A program made the translations under genes and the position numbers. The notes under the pieces are model-generated. The model made no database searches and had not been told where the DNA came from. It saw only the letters and a list, made by a program, of their open reading frames with translations. From Craspedostauros australis (Eukaryota), in contig JALAGF010000611.1 of assembly GCA_030167865.1 (NCBI GenBank), positions 1 through 39,090 on the forward strand: a DNA stretch of 39,090 nt, written 5' to 3'. The number at the start of each line of letters is the position of its first letter. The first letter of the stretch is position 1. This document shows positions 9,472 to 33,029 of this stretch, piece after piece.

Positions 9472-10380
9472 CTACGCCTTCTTCTTCTGCTTGCTGCTCT
9501 TGGCCTTGCCGGAACCGGACGCATGCAGCAGGAAGTCATCCCCGGCGCGTCCCACGACGCGGGACTTCTTGGGATACTTGTTCTTGAGTAACCGCTTCTC
9601 GATGGTGTCGAGGTTGGATTTGAACTTCTTGGGCAGCATGAGCTCGAGGTTCTCGGCCTCCGTCGTGAGCATTTCGGCCATCTTTCCGTCGTTGGGACCG
9701 TTGGGCGGACCGCCGCCGGGGCGCTTGCCGAGCTGGTGCAGCATCTTGCCGTCCTCCGTCTGCTCGAGCGGGGGGATGCCGACGACGAGCTTGAAGAATC
9801 CGCGCAGGCCGAACATGACGAGGAAGTACCAGCTGACGCTGCTGACGTAGGACGTGTCGAGGGTGGAGAGGCCTTCGAGGCCGCGCTGGAACATCTGCTT
9901 GAAGCCCATGGTGAGGGAGAAGGGGACCTTGAGCAGGATGAATCCCGAGAAGAAGTGCTGGATGGCCTGCATCATGACCATGTTCTGGACCATGAAGGCC
10001 ATGCTTCCCTTCATGCCTTCCATGGCCGCCAGCGGGTTGGGCATGTCGTCGTCGTCTCCCGGTTGGGCGGCGCGGCGGTCGGCCTCCTCCTGGAGGGTGC
10101 TGTCGCACCATTGCGACGTGTCGCTCAGGATCTTGGGGTAGGCGGCAGCGCGCGCGTGGAACTTGGACGAGGCCAGGAAGTTGAAGGAGCCACCGCGCAG
10201 GGCGGCCGTCATGCGCACGGCGCTCTGCGACCTCTGAGTGATCCTGGTCTGGTCCTTGGGACTGGCCTGCAGCAGCTTGCCGACCTCCATGCGCAGCAGC
10301 CCGGCGGCCACCATGATCACGAACAGCGGCAGCACCACCCAATCGCGGATGCTCGAATCCAGCAGGATATTCTCCGTCAT
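9472..10380 (-). CDS. EMC3: ER membrane protein complex subunit 3 (EMC3/TMEM111, DUF106)
   Basis: Hallmark motifs LLDSSIRDWVVLP, FFSGFILLKVPFSLTMGFKQMFQRG and LDTSYVSSVSWYFLVMFGLRG. Strong GC3 codon bias. Confidence 0.95.
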   Translation of the reverse strand: MTENILLDSSIRDWVVLPLFVIMVAAGLLRMEVGKLLQASPKDQTRITQRSQSAVRMTAALRGGSFNFLASSKFHARAAAYPKILSDTSQWCDSTLQEEADRRAAQPGDDDDMPNPLAAMEGMKGSMAFMVQNMVMMQAIQHFFSGFILLKVPFSLTMGFKQMFQRGLEGLSTLDTSYVSSVSWYFLVMFGLRGFFKLVVGIPPLEQTEDGKMLHQLGKRPGGGPPNGPNDGKMAEMLTTEAENLELMLPKKFKSNLDTIEKRLLKNKYPKKSRVVGRAGDDFLLHASGSGKAKSSKQKKKA

Positions 10381-10901: not shown

Positions 10902-12002
10902 CTACAACTCTCCTTCGGCGGCGCTGGAAGCATCCTCCTCTGGCTTCTCATCATCCTCGTCGTCGTCGTCGTCATCATCATCATCATCATCGTCGTCGTC
11001 GTCATCACTGGCCTCTTTCATTTCCATGTTGGCGAATCCGCTCAGCGAATCCGGGACGTTAGTCTTGATGGTGCTCTCGATCTTGCATTCCTGCATGTAG
11101 CTCAGCTCCGGAAAATCATTGGGCAGGTACGTGTCGTATCCATCGTCCTCGTAGATCTTCTCAGGCACCGGACCTTCGCCGTATGGTGGAATATCTCCGT
11201 ACTTCCAGTACCACTCCGCCACGACGTCGTCCAGATCCTTCTCATCGACGTACCCGAATGGTCGGTAATTCATCTCGTCGAACAATTCCATCTGCTCCTT
11301 GGTGGTATCCGGCATGACGATGAAGACCTCCGTGGAACGCGTGTCCGGTGCCTTGTCGCCAAACGCCATGATCCCCCTCTGGAACGGCACGCGCGTCGCG
11401 ATCTCCTCGTCGACGATGGTCATGGTGCGGTACTTGTTGCGCATCTCGGCGTTGGGCGAGATACCGAAGCGGGCCCAGTAGTATCGATCGACGTAGTGCA
11501 GGGCGTTGTTGTCGTAGTATCCTATGTCGACGAGCTCCAGGAACCGCGCCGCACCGAACGGTGCCCATGTCGGTTCGACCGTGATGTGGATGTCACCCTC
11601 GGACGATCCGCACGTGACGAGGACCTTCTCGGGATGGATGAGGTGGATGATGGGGCTGCCGGCCTCGACGGTCACGGTGATCTTCTTCATGACCCAGCCG
11701 TCCTCGGCGTTGGCGAATTCGTCCTGATCATCGATCTCGTCCTGCGTGAGGGGCAGGTAGTAGACGAATTTGTGGCCGACGACGGAGTTGAACGAGGCCA
11801 GTTCGTACGGTTGCACGGTCTGGACCTCGTGTTCGCGCGGCTTGTCCTTGGAGCTGCGCGCGTCTTCGACCCAGTGCATCTTCACCGGCTTGGGGTAGAA
11901 GTTGGCGAAGGTGATGTGGGCAGTCTTCTCCTCCTCCTCCGCGGCGACAGAGAAGGTCAGCGCGTTGATCACGGCGAGCGCGAGAACGAGATATCGCATC
12001 AT
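10902..12002 (-). CDS. Secretory-pathway cyclophilin-like protein (366 aa) with N-terminal beta domain, poly-Asp tail and C-terminal EGEL
   Basis: The ATG at 12002 gives signal peptide MMRYLVLALAVINALTFSVAA. Cyclophilin-like segment GDIHITVEPTWAPFGAARFLELVDIGYYD...RGIMAFG...TRSTEVFI...PFGYV...YGDIPPYGEGP...YL..DFPELSY. Acidic run at 10951-11006. Ends in EGEL. Confidence 0.85.
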   Translation of the reverse strand: MMRYLVLALAVINALTFSVAAEEEEKTAHITFANFYPKPVKMHWVEDARSSKDKPREHEVQTVQPYELASFNSVVGHKFVYYLPLTQDEIDDQDEFANAEDGWVMKKITVTVEAGSPIIHLIHPEKVLVTCGSSEGDIHITVEPTWAPFGAARFLELVDIGYYDNNALHYVDRYYWARFGISPNAEMRNKYRTMTIVDEEIATRVPFQRGIMAFGDKAPDTRSTEVFIVMPDTTKEQMELFDEMNYRPFGYVDEKDLDDVVAEWYWKYGDIPPYGEGPVPEKIYEDDGYDTYLPNDFPELSYMQECKIESTIKTNVPDSLSGFANMEMKEASDDDDDDDDDDDDDDDDEDDEKPEEDASSAAEGEL

Positions 12003-13961: not shown

Positions 13962-14871
13962 ATGATGTTCAAGCACTCCATCATGTTCCTCATGGCACTG
14001 CTCGTGCTCATGGCTGTGTCTTCAACAGGTGCGTGCAAAGTGCGAGATTGGATGATCATTGACGATGCAGCATTGGATGGTGTCACCATCATCAATCGAT
14101 GGCCGAGACAGAGCGCATGAGACGCCACTGCAGCTCCCGCTGTGGCTGTGGATGGGATCCCATTCGATTTCGCACGACCATGGCGGCTTCAAGAGGTTGG
14201 TTCCATCTACACATGTCCATGCTGATCCTCATTGGCTCACTCTCATCGTTCTATACGCACTCTCATCGTTCTATCCATCCATCTACACGCGCATGCATAC
14301 ACGCGCATACACACATACACACGCAATAACAACAGACGCCGTCCGCACACGAGAACGTCAGCTGAACGAAGAAAAGAAGGAGATGACAGAGGAGAAGAAA
14401 GAGAAGCTGACGAAGGAACCCAAGGCCGTCAAGGCCGTCAAGGCAGAAGGCAAGGGCATCAAGGGAACGGGGGTCGTCGTGGATCCACCGTCCAAGGGAA
14501 CCAAGTCACCCAGCCACACCAAGTCGCCCGGCCACACGAAGGCACCCAGCCACACGAAGGCGCCCAGCGACACGAAGGCACCCAAGGCCACCAAGGCACC
14601 AGATTGCAACGGCAAGGGCAAAGGTAAAGGCAAAGGCAAAGGCAAGGGACTCGGCAAGGGATCCAAGGCATTCAAGGGAGACGATGACTGCATAGCCAAG
14701 GGCGGAGACGGCGCTGTCGATGTCGATGAAGATGAACCGATCGTCGACGAAGATCCCGATGAGGATGAACCACCGGACGATCACACCGAGGATGTCGAAG
14801 ATTCCAAGGCGACATCACCCAAGAAGGCCAACGGCCGCCGTCGTCATACCCGAAGAACCAACTGGCAGTAA
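13962..14871 (+). CDS. Silaffin-like Lys-rich secreted protein, 200 aa, two exons (13962-14028, 14336-14871)
   Basis: Exon 1 encodes signal peptide MMFKHSIMFLMALLVLMAVSST and ends at G|GTGCGT. The intron ends at AACAG (14335). The phase-1 join restores DAVRTRERQL (RXL site), followed by KxxK motifs (KAVK, KGIK, KGTK, KAPK, KATK, KGSK, KAFK), HTKAPS repeats, (GK)n and an acidic block. Confidence 0.85.
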
Positions 14872-15664
14872 ACCTGCGCTGTCGTGGAATACAGCACAAC
14901 ACATTGCATTGATGCGCAGGCAATCCAAACTGGTCGCATGAATCTCGATGCCTACCTGCTACGATCCCACCTGTCTCGGTGATTCCCTTGTAGAGTACAT
15001 ATCATAGTTCCTCGTCCGTACGTGTGTTCATGTCTTCAGCAGGAAGAAGGAGAGCGCGATACCACAGTCATACACATACCATACACATAGTAACAACAGC
15101 AATAGCAAACACAATGACACAGATGACAACAGCGCAGCTCCGACGCGATGTGATCTCGGGGGATGAAATGGACGACACCAAAGACGCAAATGATCTCGTC
15201 GATGTGTCCGGTCCAAACCAAAGCCAGACTGTCGCATGTGAAGCGCAATGACATCACAAGAGATCAACAGCGTCGCAAGCATCTCTTCATGGAACAGAGC
15301 TCGGCGTCCTGTTGACGCATGTCTCCATCCATTACACTCATCCATTCTCTTCATGCAGGTTGCAGCGAACTGACATTCAACCATGAATTCCTCTCTAGCT
15401 TTACTATTCGTAGCACGTTATTCTAAGTCGTGCATAATCGCATGTGGAAGATTCGATCAATCGGCGGTTCGGATCCGAACGATCTTGTCGCAGAACAAGA
15501 ACCCGCACATCAGTTCCGAATCCACCAAACAGGGCAATGCGGGTTGCGACACCGACCTCTGCCAGCCACCACAGCCCATCCATTCATCCATCCATCCATC
15601 CATCCATGCGCATGGTGACCAAGAAGGAGGCAACAAGTCGAAGTCAACAATCAAGACATGCACC

Positions 15665-16513
15665 ATGCCAGCCAAGCAGCGATCATCTTCATCCGCTGAC
15701 TTCCTGGAAGTCGGCATGTCGACAGCTGTACCGCACGGAAATGAGACTGACGGCACTTCCAGTCTGTTGAAACGAGCTTGTGATGACGTCAATCGCGACG
15801 ATCATGGCAAGGATCATGCTTCCATCGCAACTGCTGCGATCACAATCATCCTTTCGTTGCCCGCATTGATTGGTATGTGATGCTGGCCATCTCTTGTCAT
15901 CCCGCTGCTGGGCGGCACGGTGACGAGAGCAGCTCGGCATTTGTCTCACACGTTGAATCTGGTCGTCACTGCCATGCTCATGACTTTCATGTCATGCTAC
16001 ATGGCCCACGAGGCACGTACCAAACGTCGATACCGGCACGCTTCGTCTGCATCGTGCTGGATAATCCACGGCCCGACGATCCTGATGATCCTTGCATCAG
16101 GTTTGATCCTGATGGACCCCTTGCGACACTACCTGCAAGATCAAGGCTACCTGCGGGCATCCATGTACATTCCCAACTGCCCCACGCGCAGCTACCAAAC
16201 CCCGCCGCGATCCTGCACTCAATCTTCCGAATGCGGGGCACACCATTGTGGCGGTGAGTTCTACGCGGATCGGCAAGGACAGGATTGCTTCACGTGTGGC
16301 ATGGCAGATGGCGCGGCGGTCGGACTGACTGCCGGACACGTCGGTAGATGCAGCAAGGGCGCCGAAGCGTTTGCCTGTCTGTCGCGCATCGGTTGGATGG
16401 TCACGATTGCATGCACGTATATTGGGTTCGTCTGCTTTGTTGTTGGAGTGGTGTGGAATACCAATCTGCACCTGAAGATTCGGAATCGTTGGAAGCTTCT
16501 TCGAGGCACATAA
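15665..16513 (+). CDS. Probable membrane selenoprotein (MSP-like), 282 aa, with in-frame TGA at 15878-15880 read as Sec72 (LPALIGM-U-CWP)
   Basis: ORFs 15383-15880 and 15920-16513 are in the same frame and separated only by one TGA. Read-through gives hydrophobic segment-U-C-W-P-hydrophobic segment, then HGPTILMILASGLILMDPLRHYLQD, a Cys-rich loop, and EAFACLSRIGWMVTIACTYIGF..VWNTNL. A SECIS-like hairpin lies about 75 nt after the stop. Confidence 0.8.
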
Positions 16514-16567
16514 CAGAGAGGGGATTCTTGCAGCACGCACGCTGACCAGGTGAGAAACGACAGGAAA

Positions 16568-16683
16568 TTGCCACGCCGAATCATGCGAATGACGAACTTT
16601 GCTTTCTCACAACGCACACTGCGATCAACATCGACAGGGCGCAGGGAGGGAGGGCCAAGTTCTGAGAGCAATAGTGTGGGCAA
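16568..16683 (+). promoter_or_regulatory. SECIS-like element in the 3' UTR
   Basis: Core A-TGAC (16589-16593) lies opposite TGAG (16663-16666). Helix II gaactttgctttctc (16594-16608) pairs with gggagggccaagttc (16648-16662) with one mismatch. Unpaired acaac follows, then apical mini-stem ctgcg/cgcag. Lower helix ttgcc-acgc pairs with gtgt-g-ggcaa. Confidence 0.7.
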
Positions 16684-17003
16684 CGGCAACGGCAACGGCG
16701 GAATCTGACAACGCAGTGCAGTGTTTGGGTTTTGGGTTTGGTATAGGACGACACAAGATGGCGAAGACTTTGGAAGCTCCTATCGTGGAGTACAAACACA
16801 CATCACAGTTTCACAGACGAAACGGCCCAAGTGATGAGCGTATGAATACAGAGCATGGTACTAGTAAGACTGAGATGGCATACTTCTGCTACCGTGAGAT
16901 GCTGTGTTTGGAGATACAACGAAAGCTCCACTCTCACTTCGCGCGGATGTTGGAACATGCGCTGCTGCGGTACTATTCGTGTTCGAGTGAGGCGAGTCCG
17001 TAA

Positions 17004-17267
17004 GCCTGCGTCGATGAGGCCAGCGATGGACAAGATTATTCTCCACTGCACCACTCATGCGAAACAGGTCATCTGAAGATCGTCAAACAATTGATGGAAG
17101 CGTATGGATCAAGCACTTCCATCCAAACTCGATCTGGTGATACGCCGCTACATGCCGCAGACCGCAAAAGGCGCACCGAGATCATCAAGCAGTTTGTGCA
17201 GTCCTGCAGTGATGAATACCATAGTTTCATTGCTCCACAAATGCGTGATATACGAGTACGTACATAG
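17004..17267 (+). pseudogene. Ankyrin-repeat-coding fragment (pseudogene or isolated exon), absent from the ORF track
   Basis: The frame between TAA 17001-17003 and TAG 17265-17267 reads ...DGQDYSPLHHSCETGHLKIVKQLMEAYGSSTSIQTRSGDTPLHAADRKRRTEIIKQFV. This is two consecutive ankyrin-consensus repeats (G-x-T/S-PLH..G.L.IV..L) with no upstream start codon. Confidence 0.6.
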
Positions 17268-17805
17268 ACGAGGCATGATGGGATACGAGCCACTCCTGTT
17301 CGAAGATCTGTTTGGAAGATTGTCAACTGGTATAACTTGCTAACTCGTCCGTATAGATAGGCTCTACACTCATTCCGAATTTTGTGCCTTTCAAAGTACT
17401 CGTGAATCAGCATTGAGACTTCGTGACTTGATTCGCATTTGATTCTTCGAAGTTCCGAAACGCAAAGAACAATGACATCCACCAATCTTTTTGGGAGGGC
17501 AGACCCACACGCGCAGGCGACACAAAGAGCCGATCCGAACAAGTGAGATGCGATCTCCTCTTGACCCATCATCTGCCATCCCTAGGTAATCAGAATCTTC
17601 ATCTCCATCTCCATTCTCCATTCCCAGCGTCCTGCTACAAACGCATGGCCTGACCCGGTCACCTTGACGCTCCACGCATGCAACTAGCATCTGTCATCTG
17701 TCATCATCGTGGCATCACTGAGCTCTACCATCCACAGTTGTCAAGCCAGCATTTTCAGTCAGATCCAGATCCGACTTGAACCTCCATCATTGATTCGGTC
17801 CGACG

Positions 17806-20603
17806 ATGTCGGCAGGCAACAGCACAAAGACAATGGCAAGCTTCGTGAGATCCATGGATCCGAAGGCTGCCACGGCGATTGCGATTGGAATATCGACCAT
17901 CGCGCTCTGTGCCAGCTTCCTCTTTGCGGGGAAGGAGGACGAGGACGACGAGGACGTCTACTTCAAGAACTACAAGTCTCCTGCCTTCCTGGATTCCTCC
18001 TCGGAGGAGTACCAACCCAAGATCGCCAAGTTGCTTCGCAAGGCTGTCATTGGTGCGGACGACGGTAACGATGACGCGCCTCTCGTCACGGATACTGACT
18101 CGCTCATCAAGATCATTCGGCAGTTGAAGTTTTGGATCCAGGAATCCAAGGATACCGCGATCATCAGCGAGGATGACTTGCTGACCATGACAAAGCGATT
18201 GATCCATGTGGGAACGTGGCGTCATCGGTACGGATTGCTACCATCCAGTACCAGCGGCAGTGCAGCAACCCAGCAGGTTCCGAAGGTCCGCTTCGGGCGT
18301 ACCGAACTGCAGATGCCCATCATCACGTGCGGCTCCATGAGGTTCCAACACACCTGGATGCCAGATGATCTGCCCATCGCCCCATCCAAAGAAAAGGTGA
18401 TCAACACGCCCTCCCAGGCCAACCTCGTCGCGGTGCTGCGTCAGTGCCTCAAGATGGGCATCAATCACTTCGAGACGGCCCGATTGTACGGATCTTCGGA
18501 GCAGCAGCTCTGCGAAGCCTTGTGTACGCTGATGGAAAGCGGTGAGATCAAGCGATCCGATTTCATCGTGCAAACTAAGATCCCGGTGGCGAGCATCTCG
18601 GGGGAAGAATTTGAAAAGGCCCTCAACAAGTCCTGGAACAACCTGGAACGGCTGGGTCACATCGACCTGCTGTCCCTTTGGGTGGTCAGCTCGCCATCGC
18701 AAGTGAAGTGGGCGCTCAACGACAAAGACGATGGAATCCTGGCGGTCACGCGCCGATGGAAGGACACCGGAAAGATCCGGCATCTTGGATTCTCGACCCA
18801 CGGGTACTGCGAATCTATTTTGGACATGATCAATTCGGGGCTCTTCGAATACATCAATCTACACCATCACTACTTTGGAGACTATCATGCCACAGGAACG
18901 ATGCAAGGGTGGGATACTCCCGGCAAGAAGCCAGATGCTGCCACACAGGACAAGACGAAGAGTGTCAATAGTGGCCACCAGAACGTCCTTCAACGTCAGG
19001 AGGGCACGTGGGCCTGCGTCCAGCGTGCCAAGGAACTAGACATGGGCATCCTCGGGATCTCGCCAATCGACAAGGGCGGTCGCCTCTACCAGCCTTCGTC
19101 GACCGTGGCACGCACGCTGGGTCCGACCATGTCTCCCATCGCATTCGCATGCCTATACGCATGGCAGCAGGCCGGTATCGACACGCTGACGGTTGGATTC
19201 GCCCGCCCAGCCGACCTCGACGAGCTCATGGAAGCGGTGGAGTTGCTCCGGAATGAGAAGGAATCCAAGAAGGCGTGGCTGAGCGCCCACGGGCGCTTTC
19301 AGGAGCTCGCAGAACGCAAGCTCGGCAAGGAGTGGAAGGAAAGGAGCCTGCTGCATCTACCAACCTGCTTCGAACCTTGTACCATGGGCGTCTCCATCGG
19401 GCATACGCTTTGGTGTTACAACTGTAAGTGAGCGAAAGTGGGAGCGGGAGCGGGCAGCGTCTGCTGAGTGGCGTAACTTTGCGGTATGATGTACAGCCGT
19501 TCTTACCACGCGGAAGCCAAATGACGAACAGGCTCCGGCATACCAGAATGGGAGTTATCTTCGAGCATCGAGCATCAGGCTTCGCCATGCGCTTTCCTGT
19601 ACCGTCGCAAGTTGAATTTGCATGTCGGGTTGAGATCTTGACTCAATACATCCACTCTGTCTTGCACTCTACTCGCACCGCGTTCTGTCTGTACACACTA
19701 TCGCAAAATCCGATACCACTATACTCGTGCGATGCTTCCTTTGGCATCACGTGCTGCTCAAATCGTGTCGATCAATGCACACACACACACACGTGCATGA
19801 TGCCGACATCAGTGCTCATGTCGTTTGGGATGTACAAGCAAGCCAAGGCGCTGTATTTCAACCTCGAGACCTCCAACACATGGAACTACAAAAAGTCTTG
19901 GGAAGAGAACGTCTCCAAAATGTACGTCCTCCACCGCTCAGCACTGCCAACCCAGCCGATGGTGCGGCAGATACTGCAATTTGATTGCGATGGCGGTGGC
20001 AATGGTGATGGTAATAGTGACAGCGATAGCTCCAGTCACGGTCATGGCCATTGCATTGAGAGCGGATCATCTTGACACAGTTCCGTTGCACTGCCACGAC
20101 TTAGCTCCGCGCTGGCACTTTGCTGTCACCGGTGTCATTTCGCCTCACCTTACCTGCACAGTGTTGTCCAGTTGGTTTGCTTCCACATCGCGACGCCACC
20201 ACATTCTAACAAGACCATCTCTCTTTGCTTTGCTTCGCCTATGGATCACAGGGCCAGGGGCAATCCAGGACGATCATACGATTCCAAGGTGGATCTCACG
20301 GATGCCCTGAAGCACCACATGGACCCCAATGGTGCCATGATCAAGATCAAGAATATACACGAACTGATCAACACCAAGTCCACCCACACTCAAGAGCAAC
20401 TGAAGGCGTTGGGGTGGGATGATGCGTACGACCTCCGGGCTTGGATCGAGTTTCCTGACACAGAACGCATGTCGAAGAAAAAACTGAAGTTCATCATCCA
20501 GGCCATTACGGGGATCGATCTCGGAATTGGCGGCGGGTCAGGAACGCGACCTCACGCATTCGCACAAGAAGTGAGAGAGCGGCTGGCTTCTATTCCCGTC
20601 TGA
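17806..20603 (+). CDS. Aldo/keto reductase family oxidoreductase (cyanobacterial/COG1453-like) with N-terminal hydrophobic anchor; three exons 17806-19423, 19813-19921, 20252-20603 (about 692 aa)
   Basis: Motifs RFGRTELQMP, GINHFETARLYGSSE, IVQTK, GHIDLL and GKIRHLGFSTHG. Donors GTAAGT (19424) and GTACGT (19922), acceptors CAG (19812, 20251). Phases join in frame: WCYNLLMSFGMY...SKMARGNPG. Confidence 0.88.
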
Positions 20604-22340: not shown

Positions 22341-23705
22341 ATGAAGTTCCTCCCACTCGCGGCCATCGCGTCTCTCTTGCCCCATTCCTGGGCTGCTGAG
22401 GTGCAAGATACAGAGCGCCAGCTGACCGTCACGTCGGATGGTCCAGAGCTCTGTCCCAACGACTTCTCGAAGATCCACCAAGTCGGTAACACACCGGTAA
22501 CGGCCCCACCGATCGAGATCATCGAGCAGAACGGAAGCACTGTCAAGTTCAAGATCAGCCAGATCTGGACGCCGCAGGTCGCGCACGAGGTCATCGTGCA
22601 GTACCAAACAGGAAATATGGGCGAGAAGAAGTGCGAAGCCTTCGATGACGTGCCGGGCGGCGATGAGCTCACGTTCACCGCTACTTGCGGCGTCACGGAC
22701 CCGGTTACGGTCGTTGACATCTTCATCGTGGACCAGGAAGTGGACGGAGACGCGCACATCCCGGCATGCTGCCACAGCGCGACCACCATCGACACCGTGC
22801 GGTACACCTACGGCATCCAGTGCACGCCAACGTGCCCGGAGCCGGAAGGCGACCCAGATTGCCCCGAGGTCAAGCTCGACTTCAACTCCTTCCCGGAGTA
22901 CTCGTACGTCTACGACGACTACTGGTACGACCTTGGCGTCAAGATCACTGGCGAGTCCAAGTCCAGCTCGAGCTCCAAAAGACACACGCCCCTACCGAAG
23001 AAGGAGTTCCCCATCGGCTCGGCCTGGGAAGATCGTTACGGTTTCACAGAGAACAGGAAAGACCGACGCAGCGACGATGAATGGGATACGTCGCTCCACA
23101 ACCAAGCCGGAGGTGCGGTGCGTGTCTTCAACACCAACAAACCGAACCGTGCCGGTGGCAACCCCAAGTGTGATCCCAATGACGATAACGATGGTGATCC
23201 AGATCTCGGATCTCCAAACCAAGCATGCCCATCCGGAACACCCGGAAAGAAGTCTTCAGGTCCCGGACAAGGAACTGGAGGCGAGTCTGGCCAGTGGAAG
23301 AACTGTCCATCCACACTGCTCGGTAACGTCCTCGTCATCCAAGAGGGGGCAAAGTCGTGCCCTGACGATTCCAGCGAAGGTGGCTGGATCACATTCGACT
23401 TCAACCCGGCCATCGCAGGGGAGATCCAGTTCACTTTCGCCAAGGTCCTTGATACAGACGAGAGCAACACCCCCAAGATCAAGGTCTGGAAGACTGGCGA
23501 GGACGTCAACTCCAACCCATCGACCAACGTATACACAACGCCCAAGACAGGAAACAACGGCCTGTGGCAAAAGTCCTTCAAGAATGATGGAACCTGGAAG
23601 AACCGCTACAAGAACCTGCAGCGCATCCAGTTCGAGTACCATGGCTCTGGATCTGTTGCCGAGATCAGTTACAAACCCTCCAAGTGCCCACCCACAGCCC
23701 GTTAA
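22341..23705 (+). CDS. Secreted two-domain protein, 454 aa, diatom-type
   Basis: Signal peptide MKFLPLAAIASLLPHSWA and ERQL site. Cys-containing domain (PIEIIEQNGSTVKF...IPACCH...YGIQCTPTC), then a domain with DPDLGSPNQAC..GPGQGTGG..NC..LGNVLVIQE..PDD..GGWITFDF. Strong codon bias and an AATAAA near 23801. Confidence 0.88.
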   Translation: MKFLPLAAIASLLPHSWAAEVQDTERQLTVTSDGPELCPNDFSKIHQVGNTPVTAPPIEIIEQNGSTVKFKISQIWTPQVAHEVIVQYQTGNMGEKKCEAFDDVPGGDELTFTATCGVTDPVTVVDIFIVDQEVDGDAHIPACCHSATTIDTVRYTYGIQCTPTCPEPEGDPDCPEVKLDFNSFPEYSYVYDDYWYDLGVKITGESKSSSSSKRHTPLPKKEFPIGSAWEDRYGFTENRKDRRSDDEWDTSLHNQAGGAVRVFNTNKPNRAGGNPKCDPNDDNDGDPDLGSPNQACPSGTPGKKSSGPGQGTGGESGQWKNCPSTLLGNVLVIQEGAKSCPDDSSEGGWITFDFNPAIAGEIQFTFAKVLDTDESNTPKIKVWKTGEDVNSNPSTNVYTTPKTGNNGLWQKSFKNDGTWKNRYKNLQRIQFEYHGSGSVAEISYKPSKCPPTAR

Positions 23706-24819: not shown

Positions 24820-27800
24820 CTATGTGGGGGCGTGTGGGGAAGGGCGTCGGGGGAGTGGTGGTTGCGGCGGTGCGGAGCTGGCAGATGGGGCTGGCGCCTG
24901 GCTCCTCCTGCTGTAGTTGCGCATCCAATTGACGAGGACTTTGGCCGCCGGCGGTGCGGACTCGCCGAGTCCTTGTCGCATGGCTTGGATCCAGGCGACC
25001 AGCTGCTGAGTCTGGGTCAGGGGGGGCGGGTGGTGCCACAGCGGGTGGAGGACTGCAGGGATGGTGTCGGCTGGCCGGGAGCGCAGATCTTGCAGCTGGC
25101 AGTGCAACATGGCGACCATACCCACTGATGTTTGGGATGCTTTAACCTCGTTGCGGTCCCGCCACTGGGTGAGCACCGTGTGCCACAGAAGATTGGTGAC
25201 GCTGGCCTGCCAGTCGTGAAGCAGTCTTGGGGCCCGGCGGCGTCGGTGAGGAGGCATAGGAGGTGCCTCAGCGCGCCATCTGGACGACCATCCTCCCCAA
25301 ACCAGTGCTGTCCACCCCACCTGGCTTTGGCGAAGCTGTATAGCCGATGTCGGGGACGCCCGTATGCCTGATGGAGGCACCCCTCCTGTGGAGATGCGTT
25401 TGATGGCTGTGCACAGCAGCTGGGCGACTTCTGGTGGTGTGGTGGGCGGTCGCACGATTGACCGCACTTTCTCCACTGCCTTGGACCAGATTGCCTGGCT
25501 GGACTGGCTGGGGCACATGATGATGTGGGAGTTGTCTTCTGGTAGTCCACATCTTGGGCACCTGTCTGACTGCTCCTGCTGTCGTCGTGTCATGTTTTTG
25601 CCGCTGGCACTCGTGCCCGTCATGAGTTTGAGGAGCGTTCGTCGCTTGCCGCCTGTCCATTTGCGAGATGTGATCCTCATGGGCGTCCAGTCCACTTCCG
25701 CGGGAGTCGCCGACCCCCACCGGCGGCACCATCGTTGTTTGGTACTGGCCACATCAGAGGCTTGGGCCACCGTCCAGTAATCGAGGTCTGTCAGAGGGCC
25801 CTGACTAGTAGCCAGCGCCCAGCCGCTGGTGACAATTGTCATCCTGGCTGTACTCCACCCGTCGTCTTGGGAGATGCGTTGCCATTGTTGCCCTGCCACA
25901 TCGTCGGCGAGCACATTCATACTCTCCCAGGCCGTAAGTTGGCCTTCAGAGTCGTCGGCGTGGCCTCGCACTTCCTGCTGCCGGAACCGTACCGGCGACT
26001 GGCGAAGGCTTCGGACCAGCTCGGACCACAGGTCGTAGTCTTTCCGATTGGGCTGCGGCCACTGGAGCGGGTCCGCTGCTCGCAGCGCTCTGTTGTTGTC
26101 GCATGCGATGGTGGCACGTCCTCGCACTCCCGCCCACTCGGCTATCGATGATATGACCCATACCGACATCAGCACTCCCGCAAGCTCAGCACGGTTGGAG
26201 TCCATGTCGTGGGACCCTTCGGGGACTTCGGCGGCCGCTATCACTTGGTGGTCGGAGTTCTGGGGTGAGCACTGAATGATTGTCGCGGCTGATCCGTGGT
26301 TATCCTTAGCGGACGCGTCGCTGCAGGCGGAGCACGAGCCATCGGCAATGGAGGCGGCGATCCGTTGGATGTCTCCGGTGACCTGGATGGCTGAGAGCAT
26401 GCTTGCAGCAGCTGGGCCTTTCCGGTGGATCCAGCCTCGTACGGTTGTCGGACGTGTGACCTCGTGGATGACTCCTCTGGACACGATGGAGACTCCTGAC
26501 CGTCGCGGGGCCTGGTCGATTACGAACGAGAGCGCTGCGGTGGTCGGTGGTGCGGGCGTTGCGTCGGCACTCTCGGGCGGAGCGGTGCTGGGGAGCTGCA
26601 CCTGCCGTCCTGGCGGGATCCGTGCCCAGGGGCCAAGGGGTTGCCTGAGGTGCCATCCCGGTCGATCAGATGCTGCTAGAGCGGCCAGCATTTGATCCCA
26701 AGACTCCCACGACGCCTTCGACACTCGTCCCACGCTCGGCCAGAGGACGCTGTTGGCGGGCAGTCGCTCCTGTCTTAAGATCTCGGGCCTGATTTTCTCT
26801 CCTCGCGCCGTGGCGATATCAGACATCCAGAGAACGCGTAGGTGAAGTCTGGCGACATTGGCTTGGGCTAGCGTGCGCTTCGTGACTCCTGCTAGGATGG
26901 CTTGGTGCATGACAGTGTCGTCTTGCTGCCTGGGGAGTGTGGCTGGGTGCCCCATGTGTCGCATGCTGATGCCGAGCGCCGTTGCCGATTGAAAGGTGTT
27001 CTGCCACCAAGTGGCGCTGGTCCATCCTTTCCATATTGGCTCCGTCTGCTGCAGTGTGCCCGGAAGGCCTGTCCACAGCTCCAGGTGCCTCAATGACGTT
27101 CGTAGGAGTCGGCCTGTCTCGGTGGGTTGCTCGTAGTGTTGCGCGATCATTTCGAGATGTGATATCACTTGGGTAGTGTGTAGGTGTTTGATGCCCAGCC
27201 CCATGACGTCGGCGTGTCCAAACACGTAGTCTCTAGCGATCGTGCGGGCTATGCCCATCGACGGCAGCGCTGTTGTGAGTGCTGTACTCATGATCTTGGA
27301 CCATTGGGTGCGGGTCATAGTGGTCGCCGGGGACGAGTAAGCAAGCGACGGCCACAGGACTGCCTTGACGGCGATCTCCACGTCTTGGCGCTGGATCCTC
27401 GACGTCCTGATGCGTTCTGCCCAGGTGTTTGATTTCTGTGCCAGGTATGCAGCGTGCTCGGATTGTCGGCCGTCGCGTCGCGACACCATGCCGAGGTATT
27501 TGGATGCTGTGCGAGGGCTGTGGGCTGCCAGCTGGATCCTCTCTCCTGTGGGCGCGTTCATGTGCACTCCGATGTTTGGTTGAGACAAGTCGTACACCCA
27601 CTTGGTTTGCTGCCACTTGAACCTCATCAACTGCCAAAAGCTTTTGGATGGTTCCAGTGCTCCTCCTGTGGCTGTTAGTAGGCTGTCCCATCTGTCGACT
27701 GCTTTTTGGAAATCTGCCGCTTGCTCGTCTGGGGTGGAATGCGTCAGGCTTTGCATTATGTTGGTGTCGTCCACATATGCGGTGCCCACAATGGTGTGCT

Positions 27801-30426
27801 GCTCTCCCGTCACCGGGTTGGGTATGCGGAGCCCAAACCCTCGGTGCCGCATGTCGTCGATGATCGCGGAGCTGATGAGGAGCCACCCTGTGGGTGCGGA
27901 TCCAAGTCCCTGGACCAGGCCCTGAAGGTAGTTGTGATCCTGTTTGCCCGTGTAGGACGCGTCAGATGTGCCGGTGGCCATGCGAATGCGGTGTGTCATT
28001 GACTGTAACGTGTTGAGTGTGCTCGTGATCGGCTGAGGAGGCACTCCTTGGCGCTGCAGGGCGAGGCTGAAGATGGGGTGGGCTATTCTGTCATAGCAGC
28101 CTTTTGCGTCGTTGGAGCACACTGCGTATGGCTGCCCGGTGATCCTTGCGATATCGTCGATGAGTGTCGTGTTGAGGAGTACTTCCTGCGCGGTGTGCGC
28201 CTTCCTGCTCCCGTATTGCTCCGCCGCAAGTGTGCCGTTGGTTTCCGCATGTGACCTCGCTTGCTTCCCCAAGAGTCGGTTGTTCATATTGAAGTCCCCT
28301 TCCATGAGTCCGATGGTCCTTGTCTTGGTGACAGCTAGGTTGCCGGGCTTCTTGCGGAGTTGAATATCCACGCACTGTTGCCACCTCTTCAGGCTGTACC
28401 CCGTCCTGTATGGTATCGACCGCATGATGGCATCAATTTCCGCAAGTGCTGGGTCGGTGGCGTTGACCTTCCAGCACCCGAAATGCAGGCCGGATGGACC
28501 GGATGACGTGCTCTCTTTGATTCGGGCCCATCCTTTGGAGTGATCTTCCGCGCTGATGTGGAGGTTCTGGGAGCTCCACGCGGTGGTTTCCGAGGGCTGT
28601 TTGAGAGCCGAGAGCATGGCACGCGTGTTGGCGTTGGCCTGAGTTGGCACGATACCATGGAGAATGGCTGAGGCTGCTGTATTGGTGCCGAACCGCCCCA
28701 GACTGTTTCGCAGAGGCCTTTGGCACACTTCTGCTCGCCATGCTTGGCTGTATTTGTCCACGTTGTTGTTGCAGCATGCCCGTGCGACTTTTTCTCCGGA
28801 TGTCAGCAAGTCGCCGGAGCCTCCTGGGCCGTCGTCAATCACGATGGTGACCTGTGCGTCGGCGCCTTCAGCTTGTAGCGACCATCGGATGCGCTGATAT
28901 GTCGCCTTCGTCTCCTCACGTTGGAGGACTTGTGCTCGGTACTTCGCTGCGTCTTTGCCGTCTTGCTCTACCTCTGCTTCGTCTGCCGCAAGGAATGTTC
29001 TTCGATGTTGGGCTGCATGTGCTTTCTCTTGTTGGTAGGCTTTCCATGCCTGGTTGCGGCGCTGCTGCATCTCTGCGACTGTCATGTTGCGTGTTTGAAC
29101 TTGGAGACTCGCCTTCTTTTTGGCCTTGTCTGTCGCTCTACTTCCGATGTGGTGTCCCTTGCGCCTTTTGATGCTGAGCGTCCAAAACCGGTGTTCCCAC
29201 TGCAGCTTTGACACAATGGGAGAGAAGGGCACTCGACCTGCTCTGATCTTTCTGCATTTTCGCTCTGCGTCAAGCATGGCCGAGGTTCTGTCTCTGTCCA
29301 GCTTCTCGATGGCATGCGCCTGCTGTGGCGTAGGGGTCTGGCTGCCTATGGTTGAGTCAAGTGTTCGCGCTCGTTGTAGGAGCTGTAGGGATTCGGCTTG
29401 CTTCGCATACTCCTCTCTGTACTTGCGGACTGTGGCCGGTTGATTGATTTGGAGTCGTCTACCTCTGAACGGTGTCGACGGTTGTCGTGTGGAGCCGAAA
29501 AGGCTTGCCGTCCCAATGTCCATCCAGACTGCTCGGTGGTCCCAGTTACCATAGGGTGTCAGCCCAAGCTGGTTGGGGGCCACATCGCCTGAGGTCCAGA
29601 GTCCGTCGATGGGCACGTGGCTGCGGTTTCTAATCATGGTGGAGTAAGGCGGCCCAATGGTGTTGGTGTGGTGCTCTCTGAGCCCCGTTGCCGATAGCAT
29701 GTTGGCGACTTTCGATCTGCGTACATCCATGTTGATGTCTCCGCCGAGGATGATGGTCTCACCCGCCTGCCGCCACTGCTCTATTTGCGCCTGCAGGTCT
29801 TGGATGAGGAGGTCGATGGGGTCCAGGGTGGTTTGTCGTCGTGCTGAGTGAACTGCCTGCTGGTTGTACACTGTTCCCACGGTCTGAGTTGACTTGGTAG
29901 GGACGTACACAGAGACAACTCGCACTTTGATGTGTTGCTTGCCTTGTAGAAGTATGCTTGCCCACCTTCCGCATCGTTCTGGGTCGTTGCTGCGTGAGAG
30001 GACGCGTCCTGCAATGCTCCCATGAACCACCACTGCTGTGCCTCCCCACTGTCTCTGGCGGTCTGTCTCCGTGTGGCAGTGGGACGTGCTGGTCTTCGCC
30101 ATCTTCAGGTGATTCTCAGCCCGTCTGCGGAGCGAGGACTCGGTTGGGGCTACTCTCCAGTTGATGCCGACCTCGGAGATGAGGAGGACGTCGATGTCGT
30201 GCTGCTTCACCGTCTGCCACAGGTCGTCGTTCTTCGGGTCGGTCGGATCAATGGGGATGCTGCCTGTGTTGAGAGCGGCTACTCTGATTTGGTTGGTTGG
30301 TTTGCCCTTGGTGTGGCGGCCTAGGTGCTGCTGTTGGGCGTTCAAGTCGTCCGATCTTGAGCGTCCGTGTTGGTTGGGTCCGTTGCTGTTCGGGCTGGAC
30401 TGTGCCCGTCCGTGGCTGGCTGTCAT
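24820..30426 (-). CDS. LINE ORF2 polyprotein, 1868 aa: APE endonuclease, reverse transcriptase, RNase H, CCHC knuckle
   Basis: APE at about 29515-30290 (ALN, ISE, VSVY, GGDIN, PIDG, WDH). RT at about 27430-28510 (EQYGSRK, SNDAKGCYDRI, QGLVQG, YVDD at 27766-27777, KYLG). RNase H at about 25890-26340 (SDAS, RAELAG, ACDN, VRGH, NVLAD). CPRC-x7-H-x3-C at about 25513-25560. Confidence 0.95.
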   Translation of the reverse strand: MTASHGRAQSSPNSNGPNQHGRSRSDDLNAQQQHLGRHTKGKPTNQIRVAALNTGSIPIDPTDPKNDDLWQTVKQHDIDVLLISEVGINWRVAPTESSLRRRAENHLKMAKTSTSHCHTETDRQRQWGGTAVVVHGSIAGRVLSRSNDPERCGRWASILLQGKQHIKVRVVSVYVPTKSTQTVGTVYNQQAVHSARRQTTLDPIDLLIQDLQAQIEQWRQAGETIILGGDINMDVRRSKVANMLSATGLREHHTNTIGPPYSTMIRNRSHVPIDGLWTSGDVAPNQLGLTPYGNWDHRAVWMDIGTASLFGSTRQPSTPFRGRRLQINQPATVRKYREEYAKQAESLQLLQRARTLDSTIGSQTPTPQQAHAIEKLDRDRTSAMLDAERKCRKIRAGRVPFSPIVSKLQWEHRFWTLSIKRRKGHHIGSRATDKAKKKASLQVQTRNMTVAEMQQRRNQAWKAYQQEKAHAAQHRRTFLAADEAEVEQDGKDAAKYRAQVLQREETKATYQRIRWSLQAEGADAQVTIVIDDGPGGSGDLLTSGEKVARACCNNNVDKYSQAWRAEVCQRPLRNSLGRFGTNTAASAILHGIVPTQANANTRAMLSALKQPSETTAWSSQNLHISAEDHSKGWARIKESTSSGPSGLHFGCWKVNATDPALAEIDAIMRSIPYRTGYSLKRWQQCVDIQLRKKPGNLAVTKTRTIGLMEGDFNMNNRLLGKQARSHAETNGTLAAEQYGSRKAHTAQEVLLNTTLIDDIARITGQPYAVCSNDAKGCYDRIAHPIFSLALQRQGVPPQPITSTLNTLQSMTHRIRMATGTSDASYTGKQDHNYLQGLVQGLGSAPTGWLLISSAIIDDMRHRGFGLRIPNPVTGEQHTIVGTAYVDDTNIMQSLTHSTPDEQAADFQKAVDRWDSLLTATGGALEPSKSFWQLMRFKWQQTKWVYDLSQPNIGVHMNAPTGERIQLAAHSPRTASKYLGMVSRRDGRQSEHAAYLAQKSNTWAERIRTSRIQRQDVEIAVKAVLWPSLAYSSPATTMTRTQWSKIMSTALTTALPSMGIARTIARDYVFGHADVMGLGIKHLHTTQVISHLEMIAQHYEQPTETGRLLRTSLRHLELWTGLPGTLQQTEPIWKGWTSATWWQNTFQSATALGISMRHMGHPATLPRQQDDTVMHQAILAGVTKRTLAQANVARLHLRVLWMSDIATARGEKIRPEILRQERLPANSVLWPSVGRVSKASWESWDQMLAALAASDRPGWHLRQPLGPWARIPPGRQVQLPSTAPPESADATPAPPTTAALSFVIDQAPRRSGVSIVSRGVIHEVTRPTTVRGWIHRKGPAAASMLSAIQVTGDIQRIAASIADGSCSACSDASAKDNHGSAATIIQCSPQNSDHQVIAAAEVPEGSHDMDSNRAELAGVLMSVWVISSIAEWAGVRGRATIACDNNRALRAADPLQWPQPNRKDYDLWSELVRSLRQSPVRFRQQEVRGHADDSEGQLTAWESMNVLADDVAGQQWQRISQDDGWSTARMTIVTSGWALATSQGPLTDLDYWTVAQASDVASTKQRWCRRWGSATPAEVDWTPMRITSRKWTGGKRRTLLKLMTGTSASGKNMTRRQQEQSDRCPRCGLPEDNSHIIMCPSQSSQAIWSKAVEKVRSIVRPPTTPPEVAQLLCTAIKRISTGGVPPSGIRASPTSAIQLRQSQVGWTALVWGGWSSRWRAEAPPMPPHRRRRAPRLLHDWQASVTNLLWHTVLTQWRDRNEVKASQTSVGMVAMLHCQLQDLRSRPADTIPAVLHPLWHHPPPLTQTQQLVAWIQAMRQGLGESAPPAAKVLVNWMRNYSRRSQAPAPSASSAPPQPPLPRRPSPHAPT

Positions 30427-33029
30427 GGTGACTCTTCTCCATTAGGCTGCGGAGCGTCGCCTTGGGGTTTACCCAATTCTCGTCTGAGGGCTTGGACTTG
30501 TGCTAGCAACTGGGCTTCTCGGGTCTGTGGTTGGTTGTACCTCGTCTCCGCGCCTGTGCGCAGGATGCCGTCGGTTCTGGGCTCTGGGTTGTTTTGGTTG
30601 GTGGTCGTTTCTGTGGCTGATTGGGTCTCGTTGTTGCCTCGGGTGGGTGCTATCGTGTAGGCCGAGTCTATCGACTTGTTGGTGGTGCCGATTGTTGAGT
30701 TTGGATTAAAGAGGCTTCGGTTGTCTAGGGCTGCTGGGCGGTGCGTGGTTGGCATCATTTCTGGAATGTTCGTGATGATGACGCTTGCTGGGAATTCTTC
30801 ATCCGCGATGTCTTCCAGGTTGTGCACGTCAGGGGAGGTGTAGTCGTTGGTTGCCGGGTCATGGACGATGTTGATGCTTGCTATCCAGACCTCTGGGCTG
30901 AACCATTTCTCCGCTTTTGGTCCAATTTTGTGCCGTGCGATTGCTGGGAGTAAGCTCATAAAGTGCTTGGCTTCCTCAAGGTATTCTGGGAACGAGTGCG
31001 CCACGATCTGGTCTTCCGTTCCTCTGGCTCTGTCGACGCTGTGAAAGATGCGTTTGCCGCTTTCGTTGGTTTCTCGAAGTATGAGCTTTCGGAGGGTGAT
31101 TGATTGGTTGGTGAGGTCTTTGACTTTTTTGTCCAGATGGACTACGCCGTCGGCGTCAGTGTATTCGATGACTGACAGTATGGCTTGGTGTTTTGCCACT
31201 AGTCCTTCCCTGAATTCCATTTTCTTCTTGGACATCTGCTCGTACTTCTTGTCTGGCAGAAACCGAAAGTTGGTTGCTCCTGGCCTTTCTGCGCGCGTGT
31301 TGAACAAGTTGGCGATTTCGGTCACAGCGCTGAAGGCTTGAGATCTCTCCACTTCCAGTTTTACTGCTCGCCATGGCTGTACAGTCCAGTGTCGTTTCCC
31401 TTCTCTGAATTTTTCTCTCGTCTCCGTGCTGACTTGAACAATGTTCTTGATTTTGCCTCCCACTCTGATTTCGCTGTTGTTGCGGCGTAGGCTTCGATTG
31501 ATGATGTCCACTGTGCCATTGGTGTCGGTGAACCCGCCTGAGTACAGTAGGAATCCAATCTCCTTGACTTCTTCTGCGTCTTGCAACTGCGCCTCGTACA
31601 GTCCTTCGTGCTCGTTGTAATAGTAGGCGTTGAGTTCCGAGTTTCTGTCAGCGGTGATGTCGAACGGATTTTCTCTGGTTGTGATGCGCACTTTTGCGTA
31701 GGTGATTCCAGTGGCCCCTGATGGCGCTCTCAGCCCTGGGAAGAACGCGCGTAGCTCATCCATCCGCTCTGGGATTTGTCCTGAGTGTGCGATATGAGGT
31801 CCAGTGTTGCTGGCCTCACGCCATGGGAGGATCACTGCGGTCGGATCAATTCTTCGGACTTGCCGGAACCAGCGTCTGATTCTGTCTCTGACTGCTGCGG
31901 TGGTGTCCTCCTCCGTTCTGTCGACGTTGAGTTTGATGGTGAATCTGGTGGTGAATTCATGACGGGGCGGAGCTATCTTCGTTTGGGAGGTGTTGGATTC
32001 CTTGTCGGAGCTGACTGAGATGTCATCTGTGTTGTTCTTCTGGGTGCCTTTGGGCCGGGATGTCTGTGTGTGTCTTGTCCTTCCTGAGTCTGTGGACGTG
32101 TCGCTGCTCATCGCCGATCCGGTGGATTGGGTGCTTGATGCGCCGTGTTGGCTGGCTGAGTTGAAGTGCGTGGTGTGTCTTGGGGATTTGAATCTTGTGC
32201 GTTTCGTGGGGTGCTGGCTTGTGTATGAGTCACTGTCAGTGCTGAGCGATTCCGTGGTCGGATTTGGTGGCATGGCTGCTACTCCTGTGTGTGGGGTTGC
32301 GTGTGCTTCCTCCTGGTGGGAGGTGTCCGTTTGTAGCGTCAATCCTTCCATCGCGGTGGAGCCGTTTTCCGTGTCTGTTGGAGGCGTGCCCAAATCGTAG
32401 TTTGAGCCGAGGACGCGGTTGGCTGCTTTCCACACTTTTACTGCGCGTGCGCTGCGTACTGTGCCGTCTTGGTTCAGGTGTGCTTTGAACACGTCGAGGG
32501 GGTTGGTTGATGCCACGTTAATGACAAACTGCAGGAGTCTCAGCCTGGTTGGATCGCGATTTGGCAGTGTGATCGGCCCGAACGCGGTAACCCGCCCGTC
32601 TGCGAGGTCTCTGAAGAAGTGCTCCCATTGCTTGGTAGTGGGGTGTTCACGGTCGGCTGTCGCTTCGTCCTTGTTGTACCACACCGCTCGTGCCCTCCAC
32701 GCTGCCTTGGCCGCTCGATCAATTGAGCCGTCTCCTGTGGCACGTTCGAATGGCTGGACGTCTATGCCTGTCTTGTTGGCCGCTGTTTTGAAGGTGCTGG
32801 ATCTCGGCTTGTATGTGATGGACACGTTGTCGGGGTCGTTCTCATCCATTCCGCCGTCGTATGGGATGGCTCTTTTTGCTTGTCGTCGTGCTCGGTGTTG
32901 GTTACTTGCATCAATGGCTCCTTTGGCGGGAGGTTTGTCAGGTTCCTTGGCTGGTGGGTCCAAAGTTGGTGCTTCCTCTGGTTCCTTGGCGTCGCGGTTG
33001 CTCGTGTTGGGGTTGCTGTTCGAAGTCAT
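30423..33029 (-). CDS. LINE ORF1 protein, 868 aa, function unassigned
   Basis: Long ORF directly upstream of ORF2 and inside the TSD-bounded unit. Its TGA overlaps the ORF2 ATG. Low-complexity Ser/Thr/Pro regions flank a globular-looking core. Confidence 0.9.
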   Translation of the reverse strand: MTSNSNPNTSNRDAKEPEEAPTLDPPAKEPDKPPAKGAIDASNQHRARRQAKRAIPYDGGMDENDPDNVSITYKPRSSTFKTAANKTGIDVQPFERATGDGSIDRAAKAAWRARAVWYNKDEATADREHPTTKQWEHFFRDLADGRVTAFGPITLPNRDPTRLRLLQFVINVASTNPLDVFKAHLNQDGTVRSARAVKVWKAANRVLGSNYDLGTPPTDTENGSTAMEGLTLQTDTSHQEEAHATPHTGVAAMPPNPTTESLSTDSDSYTSQHPTKRTRFKSPRHTTHFNSASQHGASSTQSTGSAMSSDTSTDSGRTRHTQTSRPKGTQKNNTDDISVSSDKESNTSQTKIAPPRHEFTTRFTIKLNVDRTEEDTTAAVRDRIRRWFRQVRRIDPTAVILPWREASNTGPHIAHSGQIPERMDELRAFFPGLRAPSGATGITYAKVRITTRENPFDITADRNSELNAYYYNEHEGLYEAQLQDAEEVKEIGFLLYSGGFTDTNGTVDIINRSLRRNNSEIRVGGKIKNIVQVSTETREKFREGKRHWTVQPWRAVKLEVERSQAFSAVTEIANLFNTRAERPGATNFRFLPDKKYEQMSKKKMEFREGLVAKHQAILSVIEYTDADGVVHLDKKVKDLTNQSITLRKLILRETNESGKRIFHSVDRARGTEDQIVAHSFPEYLEEAKHFMSLLPAIARHKIGPKAEKWFSPEVWIASINIVHDPATNDYTSPDVHNLEDIADEEFPASVIITNIPEMMPTTHRPAALDNRSLFNPNSTIGTTNKSIDSAYTIAPTRGNNETQSATETTTNQNNPEPRTDGILRTGAETRYNQPQTREAQLLAQVQALRRELGKPQGDAPQPNGEESP

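Follow-up and report, generated by a model that had tools for sequence, protein, structure and literature searches.

Does the single TGA that interrupts an otherwise open reading frame on contig JALAGF010000611.1 of Craspedostauros australis (assembly GCA_030167865.1) end a protein, fall within an intron, or encode selenocysteine (Sec)? We addressed this question within a window of 39,090 nucleotides (nt), the whole stretch of DNA that was analysed, in which the frame in question occupies positions 15665-16513 of the forward (+) strand. An initial annotation, made from the letters of the window, had interpreted it as a hidden selenoprotein truncated by standard annotation, and this interpretation is strongly supported by the analysis that follows. 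The gene is real and encodes a membrane protein of four helices, and its single in-frame TGA is most likely a Sec codon. The joint reading, in which UGA at codon 72 of a 282-residue four-helix protein would be decoded as Sec by means of a hairpin of the selenocysteine insertion sequence (SECIS) type in the 3' untranslated region (UTR), is in our view highly probable. The coding features and the public sequence that covers them are the following.

15665..16513, + strand: putative selenoprotein coding sequence, 282 codons including Sec; its N-terminus aligns with the N-terminus of P0003.
15878..15880, + strand: in-frame TGA, predicted Sec72 (U72); among 51 related loci, 48 have TGA at this codon and 3 have TGT.
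15881..15883, + strand: TGC, Cys73 of the U-C-W-P motif; C73 and P75 are present in 35 of 35 family members and W74 in 34 of 35.
15616..17255, strand not known: contig of public run X1, 1647 nt, with 0 differences, 0 gaps and no joint.

Translation of 15665-16513 gives a single frame of 282 codons with one internal TGA and a TAA stop at 16511-16513, reading ...IILSLPALIGM-U-C-WPSLVIPLLGG... around the TGA, which is followed by a codon for Cys. The start is provisionally placed at the ATG at 15665, and a second in-frame ATG lies upstream at 15383. The open reading frames (ORFs) found with translation table 11, 15383-15880 and 15920/15974-16513, share one frame, just as the initial annotation had described two annotated ORFs as one frame broken by a single TGA, and the gene-caller products are a 165-amino-acid (aa) upstream ORF and downstream ORFs of 179 and 197 aa. 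The standard code leaves window ORFs of 1868 and 1092 aa open, and consequently this organism does not use TGA generally as a sense codon. The public products of the gene itself are P0002, of 179 aa (from UniRef and a transcriptome-project source), and P0275, of 197 aa. Public annotation of the gene is truncated, as had been foreseen, and the 179-aa public fragment has neither membrane helix 1 nor the likely active site. With two gene-sized pieces covered and a gap at about 15152-15571, run X1 looks like a transcriptome. Directly before the start codon, at 15571-15615, lies a CATC/CATCC short tandem repeat, at which the X1 contig stops.

The TGA is conserved. A scan of metagenome contigs yielded 51 related loci (numbered L001-L051), which form 31 groups when near-identical copies are collapsed. 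Each locus has one in-frame TGA, after which the frame is open to the conserved C-terminal motifs. At the codon aligned to U72, the three loci with TGT are L011, L015 and L020, the collapsed groups divide into 29 with TGA and 2 with TGT, and TGG is found in none of the 51 DNA loci. Around the site the motif P-A-L-I-G-x-[U/C]-C-W-P-x-L is kept, and the protein is conserved on both sides of the TGA, so that the alignment of TGA with Cys between conserved flanks, which the initial annotation had named as a check, has been found in homologues.

Database proteins bear the trace of the same codon. The first homologue search returned five proteins, including the window's own 179-aa fragment; among the others were a 284-aa protein with W at the site, the 444-aa P0005 with Cys (HMCCWP), and two entries, one from Seminavis robusta and P0006, that begin downstream of the site. 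In a profile search of 1.84 billion representative sequences, 658 proteins matched at E<=0.001, of which 397 also reached <=1e-10 and 114 reached <=1e-30. The majority of the 150 top-ranked matches begin directly behind the Sec position, the pattern that gene callers would produce by ending a protein at TGA. When the gene's own P0001 is excluded, 27 database proteins span the motif, with W at the site in 14 and C in 13. Since no DNA locus carries TGG, the W forms most likely derive from gene callers that translate TGA as Trp. In the Cys-form proteins both halves form one conserved polypeptide.

Eukaryotic decoding of UGA as Sec should leave a second trace, downstream of the stop codon, and the initial annotation had pointed to a SECIS-like hairpin there. 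The element is present, at the following position.

16589..16665, + strand: SECIS-like hairpin in the 3' UTR, with ATGA at 16589-16592, GA at 16664-16665 and an unpaired AA 18 nt after the ATGA.

This hairpin has a 15-position stem and a possible lower stem within about 16575-16685, and it is the best element of a relaxed scan. Folded as 87 nt it reaches -28.9 kcal/mol (z = -3.04), a stability equalled by 1 of 200 shuffles, and folded within 115 nt its z is -2.16. Its cores, GGAATGACGA and AGTTCTGAG..CAAT, are conserved in the closest locus, L001, where the middle diverges and the A-run sits 17 nt after the core. Comparison with L001 and the predicted folding suggest that 16589-16665 is probably a SECIS with a lineage-specific long upper stem.

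The relatives were examined with a strict scan, whose pattern is an A/G-TGA core, a stem, an unpaired AA 8-14 nt further on, a 3' GA and a lower stem. Canonical elements were found soon after the stop in L007, L041, L013, L025 (with a GTGA core), L051 and others, and the relaxed scan adds canonical-looking elements in L024, L042, L008 and L002. Scores of -20 kcal/mol or lower were obtained by the strict ATGA/GTGA..AA..GA scan in 6 of 30 distinct 3' flanks, compared with 3 of 300 dinucleotide shuffles, and the strict scan found no SECIS match in two Cys-form loci. MAFFT alignments of 11, and then of 7, candidate elements were out of register, and RNAalifold found 0 pairs in them. The Ostreococcus-like loci L025-L031 have the SECIS core GTGA rather than ATGA, which matches a remark in a published survey that a G precedes the core in nearly all O. 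tauri SECIS elements (PMC2375036).

Several results weigh against Sec decoding. The strict scan of the window 3' UTR gave weak candidates only, the best at -8.6 kcal/mol; the distance of 18 nt between ATGA and AA in the hairpin is non-canonically long, the strict scan permitting 8-14; and 3 of 100 shuffles of the window UTR reach the hairpin's relaxed-scan score. Rfam gave no SECIS in window positions 16400-17400 (E<=10) or in 20 homologue loci (E<=5). Of the initial claim about the hairpin, its presence after the true stop stands, with the long spacing and the negative Rfam result as caveats. There are no tRNA genes in the window, and the classification of run X1 as RNA is a guess only.

We then considered what kind of protein the full frame would encode. 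An AlphaFold2 model was built on an alignment of 35 family members (mean predicted local distance difference test score, pLDDT, 71.5; predicted template modelling score, pTM, 0.63), with helices at residues 49-70, 74-81, 88-124, 131-160, 241-266 and 268-279; the N-terminus and residues 193-231 are the low-confidence parts. Model and alignment define the following features.

15809..15907, + strand: predicted membrane helix 1, residues 49-81, broken at 71-73 (Sec-Cys) into AlphaFold2 helices 49-70 and 74-81.
15926..16036, + strand: predicted membrane helix 2, residues 88-124, with invariant His95 at 15947-15949 (AlphaFold2 and alignment).
16055..16144, + strand: predicted membrane helix 3, residues 131-160, ending in D-P-L-R-H-x-L-x-D at 16115-16141 (AlphaFold2 and alignment).
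16145..16384, + strand: variable acidic Cys-rich loop, residues 161-240, with 8 Cys (translation and alignment; low pLDDT).
16385..16462, + strand: predicted membrane helix 4, residues 241-266; the C-terminal tail after it is basic (AlphaFold2 and alignment).

With four long hydrophobic model helices and a positive-inside pattern, the product is predicted to be an integral membrane protein. The initial annotation's further membrane helices downstream correspond to AlphaFold2 helices 88-124, 131-160 and 241-266, and its loop of about 8 Cys to residues 161-240, where 8 were counted. It had placed the Sec-Cys pair between two membrane segments; the pair is there, in the model, but in a break inside the first membrane helix. 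Twelve residues are invariant in 35 of 35 members (P66, G70, C73, P75, H95, R154, H155, D159, G243, T251, G254 and K271), and W74 and D151 (34 of 35 each), S240 and W264 are nearly so. Mean numbers of Lys plus Arg are 3.0 in the loop between helices 2 and 3, 5.9 in the C-terminal tail and 0.1 in loop 1, which is almost chargeless. Loop 3 is acidic and very variable across members, with a length of 20-219 aa and 0-12 Cys, and each protein has about one NxS/T sequon. Taken together, the positions of the helices, the distribution of charge and the sequons lead us to infer that both termini are cytosolic and that the Cys-rich loop, residues 161-240, would lie outside the cytosol. The Sec72-Cys73 pair would then sit where helix 1 is kinked, in its outer half, and the pair, His95 and the D151/R154/H155/D159 cluster would be on the same outer side, beside the Cys-rich loop, a placement drawn from one-dimensional data. 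SelK, SelS, SelT, SelN and SelI are membrane-bound selenoproteins that need a 3' UTR SECIS and have their Sec in a soluble segment. They resemble the present protein as membrane-anchored Sec proteins and differ from it in that here the Sec is predicted inside a membrane helix; no Pfam similarity to them was found.

The family has no Pfam family and no solved fold. Pfam gave nothing above cut-off for the window protein, and none of the 35 members exceeded any cut-off in Pfam or NCBIfam. The land-plant plasma-membrane proteins of DUF1218 (PF06749), for example MWL-1/2, are described as land-plant specific (PMC4773003). They are likewise small multi-pass membrane proteins with conserved cysteines, and 13 of the 35 members match the profile weakly, always over the Cys loop and helix 4 (best E 0.0045, 17.8 bits against a cut-off of 25.3). 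Every match is under the curated cut-off, the window protein itself is unmatched, and land-plant specificity sets DUF1218 apart from the present family. In the PDB, Foldseek had no match at E<=0.001. The best Z that VIA-align reached over 48,161 chains was 7.6, and its matches were all generic helical bundles. When the ESM Atlas was searched with P0005, a Cys homologue, there was no usable feature match, and the structure rows were unrelated families at TM <= 0.51. Single matches to TsoY_fam (NCBIfam, E 0.03) and CCC_membrane were judged to be noise, and a literature search on TsoY yielded nothing relevant.

How such a protein might work can be approached by analogy. UGA at codon 72 would be decoded as Sec under the direction of the SECIS-type hairpin at 16589-16665, the Sec72-Cys73 pair could cycle between a selenolate/thiol and a selenenylsulfide form, and the protein would act as a membrane-embedded oxidoreductase that exchanges electrons with its own outer-loop Cys, with lumenal or extracellular client Cys, or with a small oxidant. 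Thioredoxin reductase has a C-terminal Gly-Cys-Sec-Gly redox centre in which the adjacent Cys and Sec form a selenenylsulfide. The present protein shares the adjacent Cys and Sec able to form such a bond; here, however, the order is reversed (Sec-Cys), and the pair is predicted in a membrane helix and not in a flexible soluble tail, with no flavin domain or sequence relation. DsbB and VKOR are four-helix membrane thiol oxidoreductases with a CxxC pair and an outer loop with cysteines. The likeness extends to the four helices, the redox pair near an outer helix end and the Cys-bearing outer loop, and the difference lies in a vicinal U-C instead of CxxC; there is no sequence match, and neither protein is among the fold matches listed. 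A selenenylsulfide redox mechanism seems to us slightly favoured, while the lack of a significant Pfam or NCBIfam family and of a specific fold match counts against it.

Alternatively, with the same gene and the same Sec decoding, the Sec-Cys pair and the invariant His and Asp residues might bind a soft metal (Hg, Cd, Cu or Zn) for transport or sequestration. The bacterial proteins MerT, MerC and MerF have a vicinal Cys pair in helix 1, and the present family likewise has a vicinal thiol pair followed by Pro in its first membrane helix; it differs in being eukaryotic, in having Sec and in its other conserved His/Asp/Arg set. Sub-threshold MerC matches in 3 of 35 members (best E 0.18), of which that of L013 pairs residues 14-160 with positions 3-107 of a 108-position profile, and, in one of the 35, a sub-threshold merT_RC607 match (E 0.097) to the U-C region are consistent with metal binding, as are His95, His155, Asp151 and Asp159, which are invariant or nearly so and lie on the same side as Sec-Cys. 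However, these hmmscan matches are all below significance and below the curated cut-offs (best 12.9 bits against 27.6 for MerC, 13.1 against 130 for merT_RC607), no transporter stands out among the fold matches, and a thiol relay suits the Cys-rich outer loop equally well, so that we regard metal binding by this analogy as unlikely, though it is the chief competitor of the redox mechanism. A broader conjecture, which we hold to be quite improbable, is that the protein has an undescribed catalytic centre, either a selenenylsulfide or a Sec-based metal site in a broken membrane helix, ringed by invariant His, Asp and Arg in a four-helix fold with no solved relative, and that it might perhaps also represent the Sec-using algal ancestor of land-plant DUF1218 proteins, from which Sec would have disappeared as plants moved onto land.

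The TGA itself is open to other readings. The full-length protein could be made by readthrough, with near-cognate decoding of UGA as Trp or Cys and no selenium. Such readthrough would fit the non-canonical SECIS-like element of the window, with its want of an Rfam match, and the W found at the site in 14 database proteins. Against it stand the absence of TGG from the 51 DNA loci, the enrichment of SECIS-type hairpins 3' of the stop in TGA-form relatives, none being found in the two Cys-form loci, and the alternation of TGA with Cys, which is the classic mark of Sec; readthrough is therefore very unlikely.

A second possibility is that the TGA is spliced out as part of an intron, for which one stretch has suitable boundaries.

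15873..15932, + strand: in-frame, intron-like GT..AG stretch of 60 nt, beginning GTATGT and ending CAG; rejected as an intron.

Its removal (GT at 15873, AG at 15932) would delete the TGA and leave a 262-residue protein with no Sec, and the boundaries and a length divisible by three speak for it. However, the 20 codons lost would be those that encode the best-conserved motif of the family, M-U-C-W-P...G-G-T-V-T, which is kept in 51 of 51 loci and in the Cys-form proteins. Furthermore, the X1 contig crosses the stretch colinearly with no joint; the initial annotation had proposed a search for unspliced sequence over 15873-15932, and X1 supplies it, to the extent that its guessed RNA nature is right. 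With the conserved motif at stake and no joint in the contig, we reject this intron as extremely unlikely. Finally, the TGA might be a true stop: the gene could be a pseudogene or carry a nonsense allele of this strain, the assembly could be in error, or two small proteins could be made, as the separate gene-caller products of 165 and of 179 and 197 aa might suggest. This can be given almost no credence when loci from many lineages have TGA at the same codon (48 of 51) or Cys (3 of 51), Cys forms keep both halves together in a single conserved polypeptide, and the X1 contig has identical letters, though possibly from the same strain.

Sec decoding thus remains the preferred reading of the TGA, and the question becomes to which family the protein belongs. 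A novel predicted membrane selenoprotein, MSP, has been reported from O. tauri, O. lucimarinus, Dictyostelium, Chlamydomonas and Volvox (Lobanov et al. 2007, PMC2375036). MSP is also counted among the families that occur almost exclusively in Sec form in a later study (Jiang et al. 2020, PMC7539508), and a "membrane selenoprotein" is annotated in Volvox according to a plant proteome paper (PMC6681478). The present family resembles these descriptions of MSP in being a predicted membrane protein of unknown function that is almost always in Sec form (here in 48 of 51 loci). Furthermore, its named relatives come from Ostreococcus and Chlamydomonas, two of the taxa from which MSP was described: an Ostreococcus mediterraneus record in the P0022 cluster, and Chlamydomonas eustigma and Chlamydomonas sp. 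UWO 241, both with GSCCWP. No Volvox or Dictyostelium members were seen among the named relatives.

The identification has points against it. MSP "had two Sec residues" according to the 2007 survey (PMC2375036), compared with one TGA in the window gene and in each related locus; that sentence may refer to the Dictyostelium protein only. Nor does Table 2 of the same survey give MSP for the diatom T. pseudonana (PMC2375036). Moreover, the likeness lies in description, taxa and the Sec-dominated state and not in an MSP-labelled sequence. The homologue searches gave no match bearing the name MSP, and in the literature searched on diatom and Phaeodactylum membrane selenoproteins and on MSP no description of a U-C-W-P motif was found. 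On balance we think it likely that the family is the published MSP.

Some features vary among the relatives. The Chlamydomonas-type proteins P0278, P0279, P0276, P0280, P0076 and P0080 have a conserved C-terminal C-G-C-(D/E)-V or C-N-C-E-V, which is absent from the diatom-type protein. This C-terminal motif could be a second redox centre and, speculatively and in species that use Sec, the place of the second Sec reported for MSP. In the Ostreococcus-like loci, the terminal TGA was considered as the codon of a second Sec and rejected, the downstream "frame" being the SECIS region, which is not conserved as protein, and the sister loci ending in TAG. The Cys-form relatives L011, L015, L020, P0087, P0088, P0077 and P0005 have long Ser/Ala/Gln-rich C-terminal extensions, reaching 438-722 aa in total, by which they differ from the compact Sec forms. 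In a subgroup made of L036, L041, L042, L049 and L050 the outer loop is up to 219 aa long, with many Cys and NxS/T sequons, which suggests an extracellular domain grafted into the four-helix scaffold.

The surroundings of the gene are those of eukaryotic nuclear DNA, the neighbours including EMC3, cyclophilin, an aldo-keto reductase and a retroelement of the long interspersed nuclear element (LINE) type. These and other features lie as follows.

9472-10380 (-), 10902-12002 (-), 17806-19431 (+) and 22341-23705 (+): EMC3/TMCO1-like, cyclophilin, aldo-keto reductase and DUF7633 proteins.
14059-14871, + strand: upstream gene for a Lys/Gly/Pro-rich low-complexity protein with KGKGKG and HTKAPS repeats and no Pfam family.
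24820-33029, - strand: two long ORFs side by side, one of 1868 aa with an Exo_endo_phos endonuclease and an RVT_1 reverse transcriptase and a second of 868 aa.

The upstream gene at 14059-14871 is covered by a separate X1 contig of 931 nt that reaches 15123. Because its 1868-aa ORF has both Exo_endo_phos and RVT_1, 24820-33029 is a LINE-type retroelement without long terminal repeats (non-LTR), and its AT skew is strongly negative.

Together, this evidence indicates that the gene is a mis-annotated new member of a selenoprotein family that has probably been named already (MSP) and is functionally uncharacterised. It would extend the membrane selenoprotein family, probably, to the diatom lineage, the 2007 survey having no Thalassiosira listing (PMC2375036). 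What this analysis adds is the member from the diatom lineage, a measure of how large the family is, the predicted position of Sec within the membrane, the invariant set of polar residues, the probable SECIS variant with a long stem and a weak link to DUF1218. Should the family differ from the published MSP, a very widespread selenoprotein family of 658 representative clusters would so far have gone unreported. In either case, the locus is a clear case of selenoprotein mis-annotation, and the same error is found in hundreds of related entries that start just after the TGA. For functional work, the likely active site, a vicinal Sec-Cys in a membrane helix beside His95 and D-P-L-R-H-x-L-x-D, offers a target. 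Selenium is a limiting micronutrient for marine phytoplankton, and consequently an abundant, conserved membrane selenoprotein of unknown role merits study.

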